Of a stretch of DNA of 24,000 bases, positions 5,498 to 17,163 are shown one piece after another (the stretch's first letter is position 1; each line of letters starts with the position of its first letter). The DNA comes from Parvibaculum sp. (lineage in GTDB: Bacteria > Pseudomonadota > Alphaproteobacteria > Parvibaculales > Parvibaculaceae). Under the pieces are notes generated by a model. That model did no database searches. It was not told where the DNA came from and saw only the letters and a program-made list of their open reading frames with translations. The translations under genes and the position numbers were made by a program. The DNA is taken from positions 1,729,273-1,753,272 of the forward strand of contig NZ_JBKBHD010000001.1 of assembly GCF_046297875.1 (NCBI RefSeq), in the 5' to 3' direction.

Positions 5498-6154
5498 ATG
5501 TTCAATCTGCGCAAAAAGACCGAAATGCCCGCGCCGCAAGAGGCTCTGCCCGGACGCGATTTCGAGATCCCGACCGCGAGCCGCCATTTCGTGAACAGCG
5601 CCGACCTCAAGGGGCCTTACCCGGAAGGGACGGAGCTTGCCTATTTCGGGCTCGGCTGCTTCTGGGGCGCGGAGCGCAAATTCTGGCAGGTGCCGGGCGT
5701 CCATGTCACGGCGGTCGGCTATGCAGCAGGCTTCACGCCGAACCCGACCTATGAGGAAGTCTGCTCGGGCCGCACCGGGCACAATGAAGTCGTGCTCGTC
5801 GTCTACGACCCGAAGAAAGTATCCTACGAGACGCTGCTCAAGACCTTCTGGGAAAATCACAACCCGACACAGGGCATGCGTCAGGGGAATGATATCGGCA
5901 CGCAATACCGCTCCGGCATCTATGTGACGAGCGAGAGCCAGCGCATGGCCGCCGAGGCGTCGCGCGCGGCTTACGCGGCCGAGCTTTCAAAGCGCGGCTT
6001 CCCTCACATCACCACCGAAATCCTCGACGCACCGGAATTCTATTTCGCCGAGGACTACCACCAGCAATATCTGGCGAAGAACCCCAACGGCTATTGCGGC
6101 CTCGGGGGTTTGGGCATTTCCTGTCCGATCGGAACGGGTGTCGCCGCTCAGTAA
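5498..6154 (+). CDS. msrA: peptide-methionine (S)-S-oxide reductase MsrA
   Basis: The GCFWG(A)E catalytic motif is present, along with ALPGR, HNEVV and [10 protein letters not shown]. The product is collinear with E. coli MsrA. Confidence 0.97.
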
Positions 6155-8391
6155 AGCGCGCCGAAGATGCTCGCGTGATCGTCGGTCCAGAGCGGTGTCC
6201 TGTCCGTGCGGCGCGCGGGATTCCAATTTCCGCTCGCGGCGAGAGCGGTGAGCGCCGCTTCGTCTCGTGACAGCGCCACCCAGTGGGACGCAAGCGCCAG
6301 CACTTCGCCTTCGCGCCGCGGGCCGGGATCGAAATTCTGTTCAAGCGACTTGAAGCCGGCCTTTTCCGCTGCGCGCGCAACGACAGGCGCGAGGTCGAGA
6401 TGGCGGTTCGAGACGTTGACGAGCAGAAGCCCGTCGTCTGCCAGCGCGCGGCCATATGTCTCGAAGGCTTCGCGGGTGATGAGGTGGATTGGCACGGCGT
6501 TCGACGAGAATGCGTCCATCACGATGAAATCGAATGCACCTTCCGGCTCACGCGAAAGCATAAGCCGCCCGTCGCCCGTCACAATGCGCGCTTGCGGCGT
6601 GCAGCTTGCGAGGGAGTGGAAGAAGCGCCGGTCCTGCGCCACGCGCACGACAAGCGGATCGATCTCGAAATAGGTCCAGCTTTGTCCTTCGCGCGCGTGG
6701 CAGCCCATATTCCCGATGCCGAGGCCGAGTACGCCGATCCGTTCGAAGCGGTGTCCCAGGGCCGCCATCGCCTGACCGAGCGGTCCGCGCGCATGATAAT
6801 AGGTGGCGGGCTCGGGCCGCTCGCGGAAGCGGTCCTGCCGCTCGAAGCCGTGTGCCGTCGTACCCATCAGAAAATGAAAACCTTGATTGGCCCGGTCCGT
6901 TTCCACCGCGTAATGGCCGAAGAAGCTCCGCCCGTTCCAGACGGCTGTGCCATTGCCCGCATCGCCGCTGGCGGGGCCCATGAACCAGCCGCCGAGGAAA
7001 AGCGCAGCAAGCAGCAGCGGGAAGCGCGCGGCAAGTGCGAAGGCGAAGGCGGCGGCGGCGAGAATGGCGACGAATAGAAATGCGACACCGACCGGACCGA
7101 GGCCGGCGGGCGACGGCAAGACGAATACGACAGCGATCGCGAGCAGCGCGGCGCCAAACGCCAAGCTGAGCTTCCGGCGGCCCGCTTTGCTTGTCATCGC
7201 TTTTGTCGCCCGTCCCGGCAGGGCGAAGCAGGCAAGCGCGATCAGCAGCGGATATTCGAGCGGTGTCGACAGCAGCATGGGCGGCAGAAAGGCTGTCGCC
7301 GCGGTGCCGGTGACGCCGCCTGCCGCGAGAATGAGGAAGAACTCCGTCGCGCGCGCCGGCGCCGGGCGCTTCGCATAAAGTGTTGCATGGCAGGCGAGCG
7401 CCATCGCGGCGAAGCCCGCAAGATGCGCTGCCATCGGCCAGGCGAAACCGGCTTGTGAAAACCAGATCGAGACGACGAAGAAGGCAAGCGCCGGACCGGC
7501 CGCGAGCCCGGCCTGTTCCGCGCGGGAGGGAAGCCCCGCAAATGCTGCGATATAGGTCGCGAGGTAGAGCCCGAGCGGCAACACCCAGAGCAGCGGGAAA
7601 GCGGCGACATCGGTTGTGATATGCGCAGTCACGGCGGCAAGCAATGCAGTGGGCAGCGCGGCGCAAAGGAACCAGCCCGCGCGCTCGCGCCACTTGCCCG
7701 CGCTCGCGGCAAATTCCGGTTTTTCAAGGGCGGTTGCGCGCGGACGCATGAGCGCCGTCAGTCCGGCGGCAAGCGTGCCGGCCATCACGAGCCCATAAAG
7801 CGCGCTCCAGACGAGCGCCTGCGTGGCGAGCGAGGCAAGGGGTTCGATCAGGAAGGGATAGGCGGCCAGCGCGCCGAGCGAGCCTGCGTTGCTTGCTGCG
7901 TATAGCCGGTAAGGATTTTCCGCCTGCGGATGATCCTGCGTCGCGAACCAGTGCTGCAGCAGCGGCGCCGTTGCCGAAAGCGCGGCAAAGGGCAGGCCGA
8001 GATGGACGAGAAGGGCTGCAAGGATCGCGAGCGCGGGCGAGCCGTCCGGCGCAATCGAAAAATCGGGCGAAAGGCCCGGAGGCAGGAAAAAGAATGCGGC
8101 GAGCGCCAGCATGAGAAGATGAAAGGAAATCTGGCCCGTGAGCGGCAGCCGCGTCCGCAGCAGGTGGGCATAGGCATAGCCTGCGAGCAGCGCCGCCTGA
8201 AAGAAGACGATCGCCGTCAGCCAGACGCCTGCAGCGCCACCCGCATGGGGCAGCAGCGCGCGGCCGAAGAAGGGCTGGATCCAGAAGACGAGCAGCGCCG
8301 ATCCTGCAAGCACGCCCGCATATAGCGCGATCGCAGGCCGGTCTCCAGGGCGGAATCGTGCTCCCGCCGCAAGTGCTGCAAGCCTTTGCAT
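6148..8391 (-). CDS. fused polytopic membrane domain / spermidine-synthase-like (class I SAM-MTase fold) protein
   Basis: The 747-aa product has more than 10 hydrophobic segments in its N-terminal two thirds. The C-terminal domain carries [10 protein letters not shown]...[24 protein letters not shown], which is aminopropyltransferase-like. The 3' end overlaps the msrA stop by 7 bp in convergent orientation. Confidence 0.8.
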
Positions 8392-9681: not shown

Positions 9682-10599
9682 TCAGAAATCCGCCAGCGCG
9701 TCCCGCCTTGCGTCTGCCTGGTCGCGCATGGCGTTTTTCATCGCCTTTTGCAGCTTCTCGAAGGCGCGCACCTCGATCTGGCGCACGCGCTCGCGGGAAA
9801 TGCCATATTCCTGGCTGAGATCTTCCAGCGTCGCAGGCTCGTCCTTCAGGCGGCGCTCTGTCAGGATGTGCATTTCGCGCTCGTTCAGCGTTTCCATGGC
9901 GCGGGCGAGCATTTCGCGGCGGAGGCCCAGCTCCTGTTCCTCACCAAGCGTCGCTTCCTGATCGGCCGTGTCGTCGACCAGCCAGTCCTGCCACTCGCCG
10001 CTTTCCGAATCCTGCCGGAGCGGCGCATTCAGCGAATTGTCGGGGCCCGCCATGCGGCGGTTCATGGAGATGACTTCGTCCTCCGTCACGCCGAGGCGCT
10101 CGGAAATCGTCTTCACCTGATCGGGGTGAAGGTCGCCATCCTCGATCGCCTGGATCTGGCCCTTCACCTTGCGCAGGTTGAAGAAGAGCTTCTTCTGCGC
10201 CGCGGTCGTGCCCATCTTCACGAGCGACCAGCTCCTCAGGATATATTCCTGGATCGAGGCGCGGATCCACCACATGGCATAGGTCGCCAGCCGGAAGCCC
10301 TTTTCCGGCTCGAAGCGCTTCACCGCCTGCATCAGGCCGACATTGCCTTCCGAGATCACCTCGCCGATGGGCAGGCCATAGCCGCGATAGCCCATGGCGA
10401 TCTTCGCCACGAGGCGCAGATGGCTCGTCACCAGCTTGTGCGCCGCATCGGTGTCCTCATGCTCCTTCCAGCGCTTGGCGAGCATGTATTCCTCCTGCGG
10501 CTCCAGCATTGGGAATTTGCGGATTTCCTGCAGGTAGCGCGACAGCGACCCTTCCGGGTTCGGCGCGGGCGCAAGCATTTTCGACTTCGTTTCGGCCAT
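9682..10599 (-). CDS. rpoH: RNA polymerase sigma-32 heat-shock factor RpoH
   Basis: Sigma-70 regions 2-4 are present, plus an RpoH box (QKKLFFNLRK). The product also shows LRLVAKIAMGYRGYGL and IEVRAFEKL. ATG 10599 (MAETKSK) is preferred over the track TTG at 10611. Confidence 0.95.
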   Translation of the reverse strand: MAETKSKMLAPAPNPEGSLSRYLQEIRKFPMLEPQEEYMLAKRWKEHEDTDAAHKLVTSHLRLVAKIAMGYRGYGLPIGEVISEGNVGLMQAVKRFEPEKGFRLATYAMWWIRASIQEYILRSWSLVKMGTTAAQKKLFFNLRKVKGQIQAIEDGDLHPDQVKTISERLGVTEDEVISMNRRMAGPDNSLNAPLRQDSESGEWQDWLVDDTADQEATLGEEQELGLRREMLARAMETLNEREMHILTERRLKDEPATLEDLSQEYGISRERVRQIEVRAFEKLQKAMKNAMRDQADARRDALADF

Positions 10600-10604
10600 T
10601 GGGG

Positions 10605-10646
10605 CCCCCAATCCGGCCCGCGGGGCTCCCCTTTGGGATTTGGGGG
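10605..10646 (-). promoter_or_regulatory. predicted stem in the rpoH 5' leader that sequesters the G-rich ribosome-binding region
   Basis: On the minus-strand mRNA, CCCCCAAAUCC (complement of 10636-10646) can pair with GGAUUGGGGG (complement of 10605-10614). That gives 10 bp with a 1-nt bulge. The stem ends 5 nt before the AUG at 10599. A further C-rich run (CCUCCCCCUCCCCC) lies just upstream. Confidence 0.3.
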
Positions 10647-10891
10647 AGGGGGAGGCGCGAGCCCTGTCATTCTTCCGTTCCGGGCCTTATGCCAAGGCCC
10701 GCCGCCGGATAATACCCGACGGATAAGGTCGGGCTATAAGATAACGGAAGAGGGGCGGAAAAATGGCATCCGTCCCCTCTCAAGGCGCATCCTGCCACGG
10801 GGATCGGCCTCAAGGCCCCCCGGCCGGCAGAGGGCTTATATGGGGAGGGGATCAGGGAGTTAAAGGGGTTGGCGGCCGCTAGGTACAACAA

Positions 10892-12082
10892 ATGACCGCA
10901 CCAACCGCGCATAGATTGGCGGCAAAATATTATGAGGCTAATCTTGGCAGAGAATTCAGATGCAGTTTTAAAGGACATGGGAAAGTGGACAGAGTCTCTC
11001 GAAGAATAAAGGCGCTCGAAGATCAGGCGCTTTACGAAGATGACACGAACGAGGTCCCACCGTCTGATATCGTCGCTTACAACGAGCTGCGATCTTGTGC
11101 CGATCTTTTCAGAATGGCCAACCAAGGGATTTTAGATATCCAACCCGATTTCCAGCGCGATATCGTTTGGAAAGGCACGGATCAGACCCGTTTCGTGGAT
11201 TCGCTAATCAAACAACTTCCGATCCCTAGCATGTGCTTTGCTATGGACCACCGCGCTCAACGTTGGATAGTTATCGATGGTCTGCAGCGGATCTCGACAA
11301 TTGTCAGATTTCTGAGAGGCGAGGATTGGCGACTTTCGCAGCTCGACGATATAAACCAAGACATTGCCGGTAAAACAGCTGCTGCGATTAAGACGTCTAC
11401 AGATGATCTGCATCAATACTATTCAAGGGTTGAGAATCAAACCCTCCCGATAAATGTTCTTCGTTGCAATTTTCAGAAACGAGAACACATGGAATATCTG
11501 TTCACGATTTTTCACCGGTTGAATGCCGGCGGGATAAAGTTGAACAATCAGGAGATTCGAAACTGCATATTTAGCGGACCGTTCAATGAGCTTCTCAAAG
11601 ATTTGGATCAATATGTGCCGTGGAGAAAACTCAACCGTATGTCTGCCGAGGGATTGTATCGATTCACAAAGCAAGAGCTAATACTGAGATTCTTTGCATT
11701 CTTGGAACAGCGAGGAAAGTACAAAGGGCAAGTGGCCAAGTTTTTGAACAGCTACATGCATGAAAACCGTAACGCTGACTTAGATACACTCGATCAAAAA
11801 TCCAGACTGTTTCGCCGGACGGTTGACGTCATTCTTCGGACTGTCTTTTCGGAAGGGCCCCCAACAAAGATGCCGGTGACAATTATGGAGTCACTTCTGG
11901 TTGGAGTGGCTGCCAATATTGAGAGATTGGAATCAATAGACGCGGTCTCGGCCCACGAGATGTATGTCAAATTGATCGAGCATCCGCACTTTTCAGAGGA
12001 CGCGTTAGCTGAGGGCTTGTCGAAGAAACCGAAAGTCGAGGAGCGTTTCTCAACAGCCGTAGAGATATTTGCGGGACGTTAA
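10892..12082 (+). CDS. DUF262 domain protein (ParB/sulfiredoxin-like NTPase fold, GmrSD N-terminal-domain type) lacking a DUF1524/HNH nuclease domain
   Basis: DUF262 signatures are present: IQPDFQRDIVW (FQR at 11150-11158), IVIDGLQRISTI (DGLQR at 11276-11290, a variant of DGQQR), and FHRLNAGGIKLNNQEIRN. The product is 396 aa and I recognise no C-terminal His-Me finger motif. Confidence 0.85.
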   Translation: MTAPTAHRLAAKYYEANLGREFRCSFKGHGKVDRVSRRIKALEDQALYEDDTNEVPPSDIVAYNELRSCADLFRMANQGILDIQPDFQRDIVWKGTDQTRFVDSLIKQLPIPSMCFAMDHRAQRWIVIDGLQRISTIVRFLRGEDWRLSQLDDINQDIAGKTAAAIKTSTDDLHQYYSRVENQTLPINVLRCNFQKREHMEYLFTIFHRLNAGGIKLNNQEIRNCIFSGPFNELLKDLDQYVPWRKLNRMSAEGLYRFTKQELILRFFAFLEQRGKYKGQVAKFLNSYMHENRNADLDTLDQKSRLFRRTVDVILRTVFSEGPPTKMPVTIMESLLVGVAANIERLESIDAVSAHEMYVKLIEHPHFSEDALAEGLSKKPKVEERFSTAVEIFAGR

Positions 12083-12583
12083 ATGATTTCTAGAACGGAG
12101 ATTGATCGGAATTTGAGAGCGCTCAACGGCAAGTTCCTTAAGGCAAGGCGAACAAAAGATGCTTTGTTCTTTTCGAAGCTGGCAATTATGGAATTGGGCG
12201 GGTGGATTGAGGTTTCGATGGATGACGTTGTGCGTCGTTGTTCAAAACGCATTCTCAAAGAGAGGGACAATCTTCAGCTGATTGAAACTAGCATCAAAAA
12301 GAATCACGGATTTAATTACAAGGAAAATTTCCGCCGTATGCTGATAGATCTAGTCGGAATTGTGAATGTTGAGCGAATCGAACGTCGAGCAGATCAGTCT
12401 AAGCGTTTGAAGATGGAGGCTGCGCTGAAGCACATTAAGGCATCGCGTGATCCCGAGGCCCATACTTACATAAAAGGAACCACTCGGACCATTGATGCGC
12501 CTTCACTTACTTACAGTAAGTTCGTTGATATTTACGAAGGACTTCAGGAGATAGAAAGAGTGTGTAGGTCGCAAAAATTTTGA
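12083..12583 (+). CDS. small alpha-helical protein with R-x4-H HEPN-type motif (putative HEPN RNase partner of DUF262)
   Basis: The ATG at 12083 directly abuts the TAA of the DUF262 gene (TAAATG). The product is 166 aa and looks helix-prone. The motif ASRDPEAH (R122 at 12446-12448, H127 at 12461-12463) fits the HEPN Rx4-6H signature, with a polar residue after the Arg, and lies about 40 aa from the C-terminus. The fold assignment is not verified. Confidence 0.55.
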   Translation: MISRTEIDRNLRALNGKFLKARRTKDALFFSKLAIMELGGWIEVSMDDVVRRCSKRILKERDNLQLIETSIKKNHGFNYKENFRRMLIDLVGIVNVERIERRADQSKRLKMEAALKHIKASRDPEAHTYIKGTTRTIDAPSLTYSKFVDIYEGLQEIERVCRSQKF

Positions 12584-12585
12584 GT

Positions 12586-13002
12586 TTATTTCTCCAAGAA
12601 CTCCGATATCACTTTTTCCAATGTGCGGGTATCTTTCACTGCGCACTCCCAAATTATCAATTTCTCCCATCCTTCGGCGATTAGACGTTCCTCGGTCTCT
12701 TTGTCCCTTTTTTTGTTCCTATTTAGCTTTTTACTCCAATATTGTTCATTGGACTTCGGCATCCGTCCATCGAGGCAGGCCGGGTCGCTATGCTGATGCC
12801 AGAAGCATCCATGGACGAAAATCACTTTCCGGCGCGAGGAAAAGACCAGATCGGGTTTGCCAGGAAGGTCCTTGCGATGCAGACGGTAGCGGTATCCCAT
12901 GCCGTGCACGAGCCGCCGGACAATCATTTCCGGCTTCATGTTCTTGCTTCGAATGCGCCGCATGTTTTCGCTGCGCCGTTCCTTCGAAATCCTGTCAGAC
13001 AT
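12586..13002 (-). CDS. vsr: very short patch repair endonuclease Vsr
   Basis: The 138-aa product is classic Vsr. It shows RSENMRRIRSKNMKPE, YRYRLHRKDLPGKPDLVF, IFVHGCFWHQH, YWSKKLNRNKKRD and IIWECA. Confidence 0.95.
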   Translation of the reverse strand: MSDRISKERRSENMRRIRSKNMKPEMIVRRLVHGMGYRYRLHRKDLPGKPDLVFSSRRKVIFVHGCFWHQHSDPACLDGRMPKSNEQYWSKKLNRNKKRDKETEERLIAEGWEKLIIWECAVKDTRTLEKVISEFLEK

Positions 13003-13006
13003 TGCG

Positions 13007-13891
13007 TTAGTCGATCAGTTTGGTCCGCCGCAGGTAACTGAGGTCTGTTTCATTGCGCGGGCTGACAGCAATCATTTCGTCGTCACCCGTATGCGGTGCC
13101 TTCAGAATCCGGAGAGCTGCCTTGTCGTAAAAGCCCGAGAGTAGCGCGACGCCTTCCGTACGAAGAATATCTCTGGCGCCTTGATTTCCACGGAGACGCT
13201 TCATGTAGTCCCGCTGATCGAAGAGAAGGGCCTGAATGACAGAACGGTGAACCGGCCTGCCGATATTCTCACGAAAGAACTGGGCAGCCCTTTTTGTACC
13301 GCCAGAAATCTCTCTTAGCTCCCGGAAGCGTTGCATATCGAGACCTTCCCAGTGACCTCGGGGATAAGGGGCTTCATTCACAAGCCATAGAATGTTTTTG
13401 AATGCCCCTTTCCTGACGCTCCTCTTCCTGTCCTGATTGGGGCTGTTCAGATAAGCGTCGCGTGCCAGCATGACGCCCATCCAGCACCGCTGATCCTGCT
13501 CGTCAAATGCGACCACGATGCAAGGCTCTTCGCTGCGATAGATTTCAGGGGGAATCATCCAGGATTCGCGGGTCGTATTCTTCACATCGACGTCCATTCC
13601 GTCGATGACCAGGTCCCGCAAACCCTTTGGGACATCCAGCATATCGCGAATGAAGTGTTCGACCTTCAAGCCAATAAATGTCTTCTCGACATTGTCCAGG
13701 TCTGACAGGCGCGTACGGCCTGTGCGGACCGGGTCCAGCACGAAATCAACCGCATCCCGCACGAGGACTGGCAGCTTTTCTTCAAGAGCGGTTTTGCCAC
13801 CGGCACGATTCAGAACAAACCTGGCAATCTGATCCAGAACGGGGAAGTCTGGGTGTCCGGCCTTGACAATGCTTTCCGGAATATTCTTCAT
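13007..13891 (-). CDS. type II restriction endonuclease, NaeI-like (PD-(D/E)xK)
   Basis: It sits between the m5C MTase and vsr in one operon. E78...D93...D102-V-K104 have the same spacing as the NaeI catalytic residues as I remember them (E70/D86/D95/K97). The WMIPPE and DYMKRLRGNQGARDILRTEG segments resemble NaeI from memory. Neither the family nor GCCGGC specificity has been confirmed. Confidence 0.6.
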   Translation of the reverse strand: MKNIPESIVKAGHPDFPVLDQIARFVLNRAGGKTALEEKLPVLVRDAVDFVLDPVRTGRTRLSDLDNVEKTFIGLKVEHFIRDMLDVPKGLRDLVIDGMDVDVKNTTRESWMIPPEIYRSEEPCIVVAFDEQDQRCWMGVMLARDAYLNSPNQDRKRSVRKGAFKNILWLVNEAPYPRGHWEGLDMQRFRELREISGGTKRAAQFFRENIGRPVHRSVIQALLFDQRDYMKRLRGNQGARDILRTEGVALLSGFYDKAALRILKAPHTGDDEMIAVSPRNETDLSYLRRTKLID

Positions 13892-13935: not shown

Positions 13936-14898
13936 TTAGGCGCTTCTGCGAAGCGGTCTGCTATTCCGTTGCAAAGCAATGGCTATGTACTCGGCAACCG
14001 CCTGTGCAACCGGTGGCGGAAATGCATTCCCGACCTGTCTATAGGCAGCGGTTTTGCGGCCGGTAAAATACCAATCGTCAGGAAACCCCTGAAGCCGTGC
14101 GACCATCTGAACGGTCAGGCGCGGCATACCTGCGAAATTGGCGTCGGGTGCTTCCTCGGCAATGGTCATGCCATTGACGCCCAATGCGGCCCAGGCTTTC
14201 TTTGCGCGCGTCGGACCGAGATCGGGGCCGCCATGTTTCTTTGATCCGCCAACGATTGTAGGTGCAATTTCATTTGCGCGCGCAGCCCATGTCTTGGCGC
14301 CCCGCCACCCATTGGCCGCCATTAGATCGGCCAATGTTTCACCGACAGTTTTCGGCTTGCGCAAGGATTCTGTTGGCCAGACGAATGCGTCTGCCTGTTC
14401 CTTTCTGATTGCGGCAATTACAACTCTCGGGCGCAATTGGGGTACACCAAACCCGGACGCATTGAGGAGCCTCCAGTCAGTTGCGTAGCCTAGTTTGTCC
14501 AGTTGCTGCCGCAGTCCTTCTCTGTATTCACGGAAAACCGGATCGAGAAATCCGCGCACATTCTCGATCATCACAGCGCGGGGCCTGATGGCATCGATAA
14601 TGTCGATGGCGTCTGGAAACAGATTGCGCTCGTCGGCGGCGCCTAGCTGCCTTCCTGCAACCGAAAAAGGAGGACATGGCAGGCCGCCTGCAACAAGGTC
14701 GACACCTTTGAAGTCTGCCGCTCTTTCCTTGAACAGCCGAAGGTCTTCTTCAAAAACTTTCCACCCGGCGCGGTTGTGACGAAGGGTATTGCAGCAATGA
14801 GGGTCAATTTCGACAAGCGCCTCGTGTTCAAAGCCGGCCATTTCAAGGCCAAGGGCCTGTCCGCCGGCTCCCGCGCACAATTCGATGGATGTCAACAT
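13936..14898 (-). CDS. DNA (cytosine-5)-methyltransferase
   Basis: The m5C MTase motifs are present: I (ELCAGAGG), IV (GGLPCPPFS), VI (ENV), and X (GNAFPPPVA). GAGGGGAAAG lies upstream of ATG 14898. Confidence 0.95.
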   Translation of the reverse strand: MLTSIELCAGAGGQALGLEMAGFEHEALVEIDPHCCNTLRHNRAGWKVFEEDLRLFKERAADFKGVDLVAGGLPCPPFSVAGRQLGAADERNLFPDAIDIIDAIRPRAVMIENVRGFLDPVFREYREGLRQQLDKLGYATDWRLLNASGFGVPQLRPRVVIAAIRKEQADAFVWPTESLRKPKTVGETLADLMAANGWRGAKTWAARANEIAPTIVGGSKKHGGPDLGPTRAKKAWAALGVNGMTIAEEAPDANFAGMPRLTVQMVARLQGFPDDWYFTGRKTAAYRQVGNAFPPPVAQAVAEYIAIALQRNSRPLRRSA

Positions 14899-15078: not shown

Positions 15079-16167
15079 CTAGACTTCCTCCAACTCCCCC
15101 ACGAGCTCCGCAATATCCTCCGGCAACGGAGCATCGAAGCTGAGGTGTTCGCCGGTCACCGGGTGCTCGAAGCCGAGGTGCCAGGCGTGGAGGGCCTGGC
15201 GGTCGAGGCGGGCAAGCGCCGTGCGGGCTTCGTCGGAGAGTTTTGAGGCGCGGGTTTTCATGCCGGTGCCATAGGTGGGGTCGCCCAGCACCGGGTGGCC
15301 GATATGCGTCATGTGCACGCGGATCTGGTGGGTGCGGCCGGTTTCGAGCCGGCATTCGACGAGCGAGACGAGGCCGTCTGCGAATTCCTGCTCCACCTCG
15401 TAATGCGTGATGGCGCGGCGGCCGGCGGTGTTGTCGTCGCCTTCATCTTCGTTCCGCCGCGCGCGCGGCTTCAGCGCCGCCATCTTCATGCGGTTGTGGC
15501 TCGAGCGCGCGATATTCGCGTCCACCGTGCCGCGCTTTGGCGATGGCACGCCCCAGACCAGCGCCTTGTAGGCGCGGGTCAGTTTTCCGTCGCGGCCATG
15601 CGCGGCGAATTGTTCGGCGAGGCCGCGATGCGCGCGGTCGGTCTTGGCGACGACCATCAGGCCAGAGGTTTCCTTGTCGAGCCGGTGGACGATGCCGGGC
15701 CTGCGCTCGCCGCCAATGCCCGACAGCGTTTCGCCGCAATGGGCGATCAGCGCATTCACAAGCGTCATGTCGGGATTGCCGGGGGCGGGATGCACCACGA
15801 GCCCCGCCGGTTTCATCACCACAATGAGGTCTGCATCCTCGTAAACGACATCGAGCGGGATCGCCTGTCCCTCGGGCCTTGCGGGCGCGGGCGGCGGCAA
15901 GGTGAGCGTCAGCCGTTCGCCCGCTTTCACACGATATGAGGCATCGGTGAGCGGGCGCGGCCGCGTGCCCTCGATTTCGACGCGACCTTCCTCGATCAAT
16001 TGCTTCACGCGGGCGCGGGACGGCGGCCCCTCGGCGTTTTCCTCCGCCTCGAACTTGCGGGCGAGCGCATCCGTGAGATACTTGTCGAGGCGCATGCCGC
16101 TTTCGTCATCAGCGACGGTCAGGGCGTGGCGCGTTTCATCATCTGAAGGCAGGGCGGCGGACATCAT
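15079..16167 (-). CDS. rluD: 23S rRNA pseudouridine synthase, RluA/RluD family
   Basis: There is an S4-like N-terminus (MRLDKYL...RVKQLIEEGRVEIEG), a catalytic HRLDKETSGLMVVAK, and HQIRVH. The start is placed at the MMSAALP/MSAALP ATGs (16167 or 16164) rather than the track start 16302. Confidence 0.9.
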   Translation of the reverse strand: MMSAALPSDDETRHALTVADDESGMRLDKYLTDALARKFEAEENAEGPPSRARVKQLIEEGRVEIEGTRPRPLTDASYRVKAGERLTLTLPPPAPARPEGQAIPLDVVYEDADLIVVMKPAGLVVHPAPGNPDMTLVNALIAHCGETLSGIGGERRPGIVHRLDKETSGLMVVAKTDRAHRGLAEQFAAHGRDGKLTRAYKALVWGVPSPKRGTVDANIARSSHNRMKMAALKPRARRNEDEGDDNTAGRRAITHYEVEQEFADGLVSLVECRLETGRTHQIRVHMTHIGHPVLGDPTYGTGMKTRASKLSDEARTALARLDRQALHAWHLGFEHPVTGEHLSFDAPLPEDIAELVGELEEV

Positions 16168-16573
16168 GGGCGAGACTATATCACCGGAAGGTTCCACGTC
16201 GCGCGAGGCGCCAGAACCGGGCCAGCCTCTTGATGAAGCAAAGCTGAGGAAGCTGAAGCTCCTCATGGGCATGATGTCGGGCTTTCTCGTGCTCACCTTC
16301 ATGGTGGTGATCGCCGCCTTTGTCTGGCGCCTGTCGGGCGGCGGCGCGGAAGGCGGGGCGCCGCGTGCGTCGCTGCCGGCCGGTTATTTCGGCATTTCGC
16401 ATGTCGGCATAGCGCCGGGCCAGATGGTGCGTTCCGTCACGCTGGGCGAGGGCCGTGTCGCCATCCATGTCACGGGCGGCGACGCCGACATGGTGATCCT
16501 CGCCGATCCGAAGAGCGGCGCCGAGCTTGGCCGTATCGTGGTCACGCCCATGTCCGATTTCGCGGCGCGATGA
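16166..16573 (+). CDS. small single-pass membrane protein, function unknown
   Basis: MGETISPEG...LRKLKLLMGMMSGFLVLTFMVVIAAFVW has one TM helix followed by a soluble domain of about 70 aa. It is in frame with the distal part of track ORF 15902..16573, whose 5' part is antisense to rluD. An alternative start is ATG 16265. Confidence 0.6.
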   Translation: MGETISPEGSTSREAPEPGQPLDEAKLRKLKLLMGMMSGFLVLTFMVVIAAFVWRLSGGGAEGGAPRASLPAGYFGISHVGIAPGQMVRSVTLGEGRVAIHVTGGDADMVILADPKSGAELGRIVVTPMSDFAAR

Positions 16574-17087: not shown

Positions 17088-17163
17088 GTCCCCTTCGTCT
17101 AGCGGTCCAGGACGTCGCCCTCTCACGGCGAAAACAGGGGTTCGAGTCCCCTAGGGGACGCCA
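17088..17163 (+). tRNA. tRNA-Glu (anticodon CUC)
   Basis: A 76-nt cloverleaf folds by hand. The acceptor stem is GTCCCCT/AGGGGAC, with discriminator G and an encoded CCA. The anticodon stem is TCGCC/GGCGA with loop CT-CTC-AC. The T arm is AGGGG-TTCGAGT-CCCCT. Confidence 0.95.

Follow-up and report, generated by a model that had tools for sequence, protein, structure and literature searches.

Do the two abutting open reading frames (ORFs) found side by side in a Parvibaculum sp. chromosome form a defence system that is new, or do they belong to one already on record? The stretch analysed here (the window) comprises 24,000 nucleotides (nt) of Parvibaculum sp. DNA, contig NZ_JBKBHD010000001.1, positions 1,729,273-1,753,272, and the pair consists of a 396 amino acid (aa) ORF, A, coding for a DUF262 protein, followed by a 166-aa ORF, B, coding for a HEPN-type protein. 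A sequence-only reading of the locus had proposed an uncharacterised two-gene defence system with no experimental counterpart. The defence role is supported by matches to the PADLOC models for PD-T4-2; the system itself is already known, experimentally validated and present in defence databases. The pair is very probably a Parvibaculum member of the PD-T4-2 anti-phage defence family, and its features, in window coordinates, are as follows.

10892..12082, + strand: gene A (PD-T4-2_A), 396 aa; ParB/Srx-like DUF262 domain of nucleoside triphosphatase (NTPase) type at aa 71-227, and an all-helical C-terminal domain at aa ~230-396 of NsnA-C or 'ParBDB' type (Pfam, PADLOC)
11276..11290, + strand: codons for D129-G-L-Q-R133, the family variant of the DUF262 DGQQR nucleotide-pocket motif (invariant in 27 homologues and present in the Escherichia coli homologue)
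12080..12085, + strand: A/B junction TAAATG, the stop codon of A abutting the start codon of B (direct sequence reading)
12083..12583, + strand: gene B (PD-T4-2_B), stand-alone 166-aa HEPN-type protein assigned to the RiboL-PSP-HEPN family, predicted metal-independent RNase effector (PADLOC, Pfam matches within the family, structure model)
12446..12463, + strand: codons for R122-D-P-E-A-H127, the putative HEPN Rx4H catalytic motif (invariance, position in the model)

Identity of the gene pair

Both proteins give full-length matches to dedicated PADLOC models. PD-T4-2_A (PDLC04027) aligns with aa 36-394 of A over model positions 7-362 of 363 (expect value (E) 3e-156), and PD-T4-2_B (PDLC04028) aligns with aa 1-163 of B over positions 1-165 of 168 (E 2.3e-56). 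PD-T4-2 is listed as 'DUF262, HEPN', and as validated, in Table S1 of Vassallo et al. 2022 (PMC9519451), having been recovered from strain ECOR65 by functional selection from the E. coli pangenome. The cloned two-gene fragment, under its own promoter, protects E. coli K-12 against phage T4, and deletion of the system in ECOR65 restores T4 plaquing (PMC9519451). An HHpred analysis of PD-T4-2B by the same authors returned HEPN_RiboL-PSP (97.8%) and HEPN_MAE_28990 (96.9%) (PMC9519451). The system is counted among the DUF262 systems without DUF1524 in later papers (PMC10952713, PMC12065111), and among HEPN defence systems elsewhere in the later literature. An earlier trace is found in Anantharaman et al. 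2013, where RiboL-PSP-HEPN is recorded 'in operon with ParB'. Those operons, of RiboL-PSP-HEPN or MAE_28990 HEPN genes with ParB-like genes, resemble the window pair in the PF18735 matches within the family of B, the ParB-like partner and the Rx4-6H motif, but their description was computational only, and the window pair has no fusion to endoRNase L-PSP.

A blastn search of 5,426 complete E. coli genomes with the window pair gave no match, while a Shewanella homologue used as a bridge query matched 17 E. coli chromosomes of that set. One of these, strain 2009C-3133, carries a 375-aa 'DUF262 domain-containing protein' and, after a 4-nt gap, a 167-aa 'HEPN domain-containing protein'. The two genes are situated between the psu gene and the integrase gene of a P4-like satellite inserted at ssrA (L066:4890-8807), an interval that is the known defence hotspot of P4-like elements. 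They score 2.3e-162 and 7.9e-64 against the PD-T4-2_A and _B models, which marks them as a PD-T4-2-type pair. The validated ECOR65 genes are RCO39066.1 and the ORF that follows it (QOYX01000002, 338334-339873); RCO39066.1 was not among the 15 cluster members listed. Window A is 50% identical to the 2009C-3133 protein over 356 aa (E 2e-133), and window B 38% over 166 aa (E 2e-49). The Parvibaculum pair and E. coli PD-T4-2 share the same two families, the DUF262-then-HEPN order, tight coupling and a domain content without DUF1524. They differ in setting, a P4-like satellite in E. coli as against an alphaproteobacterial chromosomal islet between rpoH and rluD beside a type II restriction-modification (R-M) system, and window A may carry an N-terminal extension of 31-35 aa.

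The claim of novelty fails because a matching, characterised system sits in the defence databases. That the pair might even so be a previously unrecognised, uncharacterised two-gene system finds some encouragement in the annotation, window B having no Pfam or NCBIfam match and being called a 'hypothetical protein' by NCBI, but both genes have PADLOC models that match over their full length, and the system, validated by experiment in 2022, appears in later reviews under DUF262 + HEPN. We give this reading almost no credence.

The two proteins and their conservation

The sole Pfam match of A at E <= 1 is PF03235 (GmrSD_N/DUF262), which covers aa 71-227 (E 7e-25). The motifs quoted in the sequence-only reading were all recovered, PDFQRDIVW at aa 85-93, IDGLQRI at aa 128-134 and FHRLNAGGIKLNNQEIRN at aa 207-224 in A, and R122-D-P-E-A-H127 in B. 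The DUF262 motifs are invariant in an alignment of 27 homologues, and A homologues from different phyla are 62-66% identical. Across the whole PD-T4-2_A family, DGLQR takes the place of the canonical DUF262 DGQQR, a motif with a role in nucleoside triphosphate (NTP) binding and hydrolysis (PMC10952713). The sequence-only reading had recognised no DUF1524/His-Me nuclease in A, and this held up: no DUF1524 or His-Me nuclease was matched in Pfam at E <= 1, and among the 27 homologues aa 230-396 contain neither an invariant His nor a DHxxP-type motif.

What the C-terminal half of A resembles is shown by the PADLOC model for NsnA, which matches the whole length of the protein (aa 46-393, E 1.2e-56). 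NsnA is built of a ParB-DUF262 domain and a helical 'ParBDB' domain related to the middle domain of SspE, and domains of this NsnA-C/SspE-M type are reported to bind DNA (PMC12065111). The top Foldseek match of the A model in the PDB was likewise SspE, weakly (E 0.025). Profile searches of the A and B families against PDB sequences returned nothing usable, the matches being BrxU at E 0.28 and, by chance, guanylate kinase at E 0.7. A is identical to NCBI entry WP_409812654.1 of Parvibaculum sp. Its true start codon may be the GTG at 10985, giving a 365-aa protein, because homologues are 361-363 aa long and begin near window residue 36. This GTG is preceded by AAAGGA, and the 365-aa form is called in other assemblies; the ORF from 10892 would then carry 31-35 extra residues at its N-terminus.

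For B, an alignment of 40 homologues (32-54% identical to the window protein) shows R122 and H127 to be invariant. Position 123 is D or N, so that a polar residue follows the arginine, and A126 and T128 are nearly invariant or invariant. An Rx4-6H motif with a polar residue after the R is the published criterion for HEPN domains (PMC3710099). A second invariant block, K32-L-A-x-x-E37-x-x-G40-W41-x-E43-x-x-x-D47, lies in long helix 2 (residues 24-57) and includes the invariant acidic residues E37, E43 and D47. Pfam PF18735 (HEPN_RiboL-PSP) is matched by 28 of the 40 family members, with a best E of 1.1e-10. The AlphaFold2 model of B is all-alpha (pLDDT, the per-residue confidence score, 90.8; pTM, the predicted template modelling score, 0.86). 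In it, helix 105-125 ends in the Rx4H motif, which runs on into the loop that precedes the last helix (140-163), and a helical insert separates E37/E43/D47 from the motif helix. HEPN domains are described as carrying their motif at just this place (PMC3710099). The structural check of the 166-aa protein was divided in its outcome: helix topology and motif position fit a HEPN fold, and Foldseek gave no significant match in the PDB, HEPN entries appearing only at E 1-2. Motif, family matches and predicted helix topology together make B a probable HEPN-type member of the RiboL-PSP-HEPN family; a HEPN assignment had been suggested from its Rx4H motif. NCBI annotates it as 156 aa; the 166-aa form is favoured because conservation in the family runs from residue 1 (residues 1-11, encoded at 12083-12115).

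The association of the two genes was surveyed by scanning one genome per species, which gave 65 loci with a B homologue, 60 of them with upstream DNA. In 59 of these 60 informative loci B is immediately preceded by an A homologue in the same orientation. The 53 junctions that could be measured, ATGA, TAATG and TAAATG among them, put the start of B at -11 to +12 nt from the stop of A, and the abutment in the window points to translational coupling. The hosts include Nitrospirota, Acidobacteriota, Chloroflexota, Pseudomonadota, Bacteroidota, Cyanobacteria and Patescibacteria. As judged from these gene arrangements, A-then-B is a conserved, translationally coupled operon across at least seven phyla, which agrees with the co-expression of the pair expected from the abutting codons. 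Its immediate neighbours are heterogeneous from genome to genome, supporting the autonomy of the pair.

The sole exception to this synteny is L046:6001-6444, where the B homologue (39% identity over residues 1-148) lacks an A homologue in the 6 kb upstream and is perhaps an orphan or a decayed copy. An exhaustive profile search collected B-like proteins in 678 clusters at 50% identity; almost all of them are stand-alone, with lengths of 160-175 aa. A tblastn search with B against plasmid and phage collections gave no match.

The islet and its restriction-modification cassette

The pair lies in an islet spanning about 10.7-15.0 kb of the window, with a GC content of 0.46-0.56 against 0.60-0.66 in the flanks. 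It is bordered by an rpoH-type sigma factor gene (9682..10611) and an rluD-type pseudouridine synthase gene (15079..16302). Besides A and B it carries three context genes identified by Pfam, which stand outside the two-gene system.

12586..13002, - strand: Vsr very-short-patch-repair endonuclease (Pfam PF03852, E 1.2e-29; TIGR00632, E 6e-45)
13007..13891, - strand: NaeI-family type II restriction endonuclease (Pfam PF09126 NaeI, E 1.4e-40)
13936..14898, - strand: C5 cytosine DNA methyltransferase of the R-M cassette (Pfam PF00145, E 7.7e-69; PADLOC MTase_II/DruM-type models)

The Vsr gene is convergent with B, a gap of 2 nt separating them. The base composition and these genes bear out the earlier view of a horizontally acquired defence islet beside an R-M system. 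A scan for promoters and terminators gave signals at or below shuffle expectation and was uninformative. The ends of the islet and of the invertible A-B module were searched for direct or inverted repeats, with short, chance-like matches only, and no tRNA gene is present at the islet border, the only one being a tRNA-Glu at 17088, away from it. The lower GC content of A-B (0.44-0.47) relative to the R-M genes (0.50-0.57) could be read as a separate, later acquisition of the pair. This idea was rejected because A-B is the lowest-GC part of every R-M-linked locus, that is, a trait of the family.

The window methyltransferase, restriction enzyme and Vsr were compared (tblastn) with the 65 genome loci. 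Orthologues lie directly beside the pair in 11-12 loci, or about 20% of species-level genomes, mostly Alphaproteobacteria (L008, L022, L025, L028, L032, L035, L036, L039, L041, L042 and L047; also L112 and L144). The methyltransferases are 56-83% identical to that of the window, the restriction enzymes 38-57% and the Vsr proteins 50-72%. The linkage occurs in Parvibaculum, Qipengyuania, Hohaiivirga, Sphingopyxis, Robiginitomaculum, Harenicola, Aliiroseovarius, Dinoroseobacter, an Acetobacteraceae metagenome-assembled genome (MAG) and two other proteobacterial MAGs. Three arrangements occur: methyltransferase-restriction enzyme-(Vsr)-A-B, A-B-methyltransferase-restriction enzyme-(Vsr), and the convergent form of the window.

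A second Parvibaculum genome (L008) carries the R-M genes and the pair at the same rluD/rpoH site, with A-B inverted (window 10611-12586, L008:4730-6917). At the DNA level, A-B is about 67% identical between the two genomes, the rpoH-side flank 79-80%, and the R-M and rluD-side segments 71-80%. The divergence of the encoded proteins is non-congruent (methyltransferase 83%, restriction enzyme 39%, A 61%, B 49%). The restriction enzymes fall into two clades that are at odds with the methyltransferase tree, which suggests replacement of the restriction gene inside a conserved R-M cassette.

A Pfam census of 107 immediate neighbour ORFs of the pair has Vsr, NaeI, phage integrase and C5 methylase as its top families, the remainder being heterogeneous. 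Approached from the R-M side, NaeI-type loci seldom have the pair: it is present at 2 of the 47 metagenomic ones whose flanks are adequate. An obligate five-gene system of R-M genes and pair was rejected on the neighbour census and this R-M-side survey. The association is recurrent but facultative and compatible with ordinary defence-island dynamics; there is a small chance that it reflects functional complementarity.

Elsewhere in the window, the region collinear with the second Parvibaculum genome is interrupted by a 2.3-kb stretch (6148-8391, - strand, GC 0.66-0.68) that is missing from L008. It encodes a 747-aa protein whose C-terminal part is spermidine-synthase-like (NF037959, fused major facilitator superfamily transporter/spermidine synthase, E 5.6e-18). 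A thiamine pyrophosphate (TPP) riboswitch at 32-144 (RF00059, 67 bits) lies upstream of thiC at 1002-2870 (ThiC equivalog, E 0), and between them is a 282-aa ORF at 139-987.

Mechanism, alternatives and significance

The most likely mechanism, by analogy, is that of a DUF262 sensor licensing a HEPN RNase. A would serve as sensor and regulator, or switch, its DUF262 NTP pocket (FQRD, DGLQR) together with the DNA-binding-type C-terminal domain recognising a feature of the infecting phage DNA. Possible cues are hypermodified cytosine of the kind carried by T-even phages, and a nucleotide signal. Cytosine hypermodification is a plausible trigger because systems selected against T4 generally protect also against T2 and T6, which carry hypermodified cytosine (PMC9519451), and because characterised DUF262 enzymes read modified DNA. 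NTP-dependent conformational switching of the kind typical of GmrSD, BrxU and SspE would then lead A to release or activate B. The HEPN protein, probably a dimer in which two Rx4H motifs are brought together, would cleave RNA without a metal ion, stopping translation so that phage production fails.

Several known systems share parts of this design. GmrSD, BrxU and SspE have in common with A the N-terminal, ParB-like DUF262 domain of NTPase type, the DG(Q/L)QR motif and a defence role; the middle helical domain of A resembles SspE-M, its top though weak fold match, and the sequence similarity to BrxU is marginal (the E of 0.28 given above). They carry a DUF1524 His-Me nuclease, whereas A does not and its putative effector is a separate HEPN protein. 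Menshen (NsnABC) is close in its sensor, A matching NsnA in both its ParB-DUF262 and ParBDB parts, and also in its logic of DUF262 sensor and RNase effector, Menshen effectors being mostly RNases (PMC12065111). It differs in having an NsnB ABC-ATPase as transducer and an inPIN-containing NsnC; downstream of A there is the HEPN gene and then the convergent Vsr gene, with no nsnB or nsnC, leaving two genes only and a HEPN effector. The DUF262-Schlafen fusion EcoSlfn7 (bacterial Schlafen defence, 2026) likewise directs a DUF262 domain and an RNase effector against phage, but with the Schlafen nuclease fused in cis, whereas the HEPN protein of the pair would act in trans. In HEPN-MNT toxin-antitoxin modules the partner is a minimal nucleotidyltransferase (MNT); here it is a DUF262 protein, and Pfam detects no nucleotidyltransferase domain.

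That last comparison leads to another possible function, in which B is a constitutively toxic HEPN RNase and A its protein antitoxin, the two stabilising the R-M/defence islet as an addiction module with defence as a by-product. HEPN-MNT and RnlAB-type modules do have HEPN RNases as their toxins, the two genes are tightly coupled as a bicistron, and the pair resides in a small mobile islet here and in a P4-like satellite in E. coli. The gene order is that of a large protein preceding a small putative toxin, however, and an 'antitoxin' of 360 aa, NTPase-type and 62-66% conserved across phyla, would be atypical. Neither an MNT nor any other known HEPN antitoxin was detected by Pfam in the window, the plasmid collection yielded no matches, and in E. 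coli the system was picked out by selection for phage defence and confirmed as such in its native strain. We consider an addiction module unlikely. Roles could also be reversed in the manner of type IV restriction, with the ParB-like DUF262 domain of A acting as a nuclease or nickase on modified phage DNA and B as an accessory or regulatory subunit, not a killing RNase. Anantharaman et al. treat ParB-like domains as DNases, such operons appearing there as 'ParB nuclease' plus HEPN, modified DNA is what the best-known DUF262 proteins (GmrSD, BrxU and SspE) act on, and the protection against T2 and T6 mentioned above would fit. Cutting in those three enzymes is performed by DUF1524, though, and A has neither a Pfam match to it nor an invariant His in its C-terminal half, while the Rx4H of B is invariant in 40 of 40 homologues, which argues for a catalytic rather than a structural role. 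This arrangement appears improbable.

The remaining alternative enlarges the system to a five-gene composite with the NaeI-type 5-methylcytosine (m5C) R-M cassette and Vsr. PrrC-EcoprrI and RloC are R-M-linked HEPN anticodon nucleases that are active against T4. Their HEPN assignment is documented (PMC3710099), and the genetic linkage of a HEPN RNase to R-M genes is a feature shared with the window locus; but PrrC has its own ABC-type NTPase domain and lies within a type I R-M system, whereas the window has a NaeI-like type II system, a DUF262 partner and a facultative linkage. The pair would in the composite be either a guard that fires B on inhibition of the R-M system, as in PrrC-EcoprrI, or a complementary arm against modified DNA, as in BREX-BrxU. 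The case for the composite is built on the orthologous R-M and Vsr genes that adjoin the pair in 11-12 of ~58 genome loci, on their rank as the commonest immediate neighbours, on the three arrangements with non-congruent divergence, and on the same combination, with the pair inverted, at one site in two Parvibaculum genomes. Against this, the E. coli pair is active by itself once cloned into K-12, this R-M cassette is absent from about 80% of genome loci, few NaeI-type loci have the pair, and defence genes are often co-located in islands without functional coupling. We think it doubtful that such a composite exists. Nor do we put much faith in a version limited to Alphaproteobacteria, a selected partnership of PD-T4-2 with the NaeI-type m5C R-M system (and Vsr) in which DUF262 reads the cytosine-modification state or the integrity of the R-M system. 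The R-M enzymes of this layered five-gene unit would deal with unmodified DNA, and its DUF262/HEPN arm with hypermodified DNA or restriction-inhibiting phages. If true, it would give a first handle on what PD-T4-2 senses.

We retain the assignment to PD-T4-2, with the DUF262 protein as probable sensor and the HEPN protein as probable effector, and several points weigh against it. Identity to the E. coli homologues is no more than 50% for A and 38% for B, and the defence role in Parvibaculum is a predicted one. Window B itself does not reach PF18735 at E <= 1, and the structure model of A is of low confidence (pLDDT 67.8 overall), its DUF262 half being poor. The NTPase competence of A is not assured, because the DGQQR motif reads DGLQR. 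The direction from sensor to effector, the trigger and the RNA target are drawn by analogy with GmrSD, BrxU, SspE and other HEPN systems, and no published mechanism for PD-T4-2 was found in the literature searched.

As a discovery the locus carries little weight, since a PADLOC or DefenseFinder run would label it PD-T4-2. Its remaining interest lies in the mechanism of PD-T4-2 and in the R-M association, which may be a new side observation for this system. Menshen and the DUF262-Schlafen fusions repeat the scheme in which a DUF262 sensor is coupled with an RNase effector, and the picture of the PD-T4-2 family is extended to a strictly syntenic, translationally coupled pair spread over at least seven phyla. 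Its recurrent, facultative tie to one specific m5C R-M cassette offers a possible lead on the trigger of PD-T4-2.

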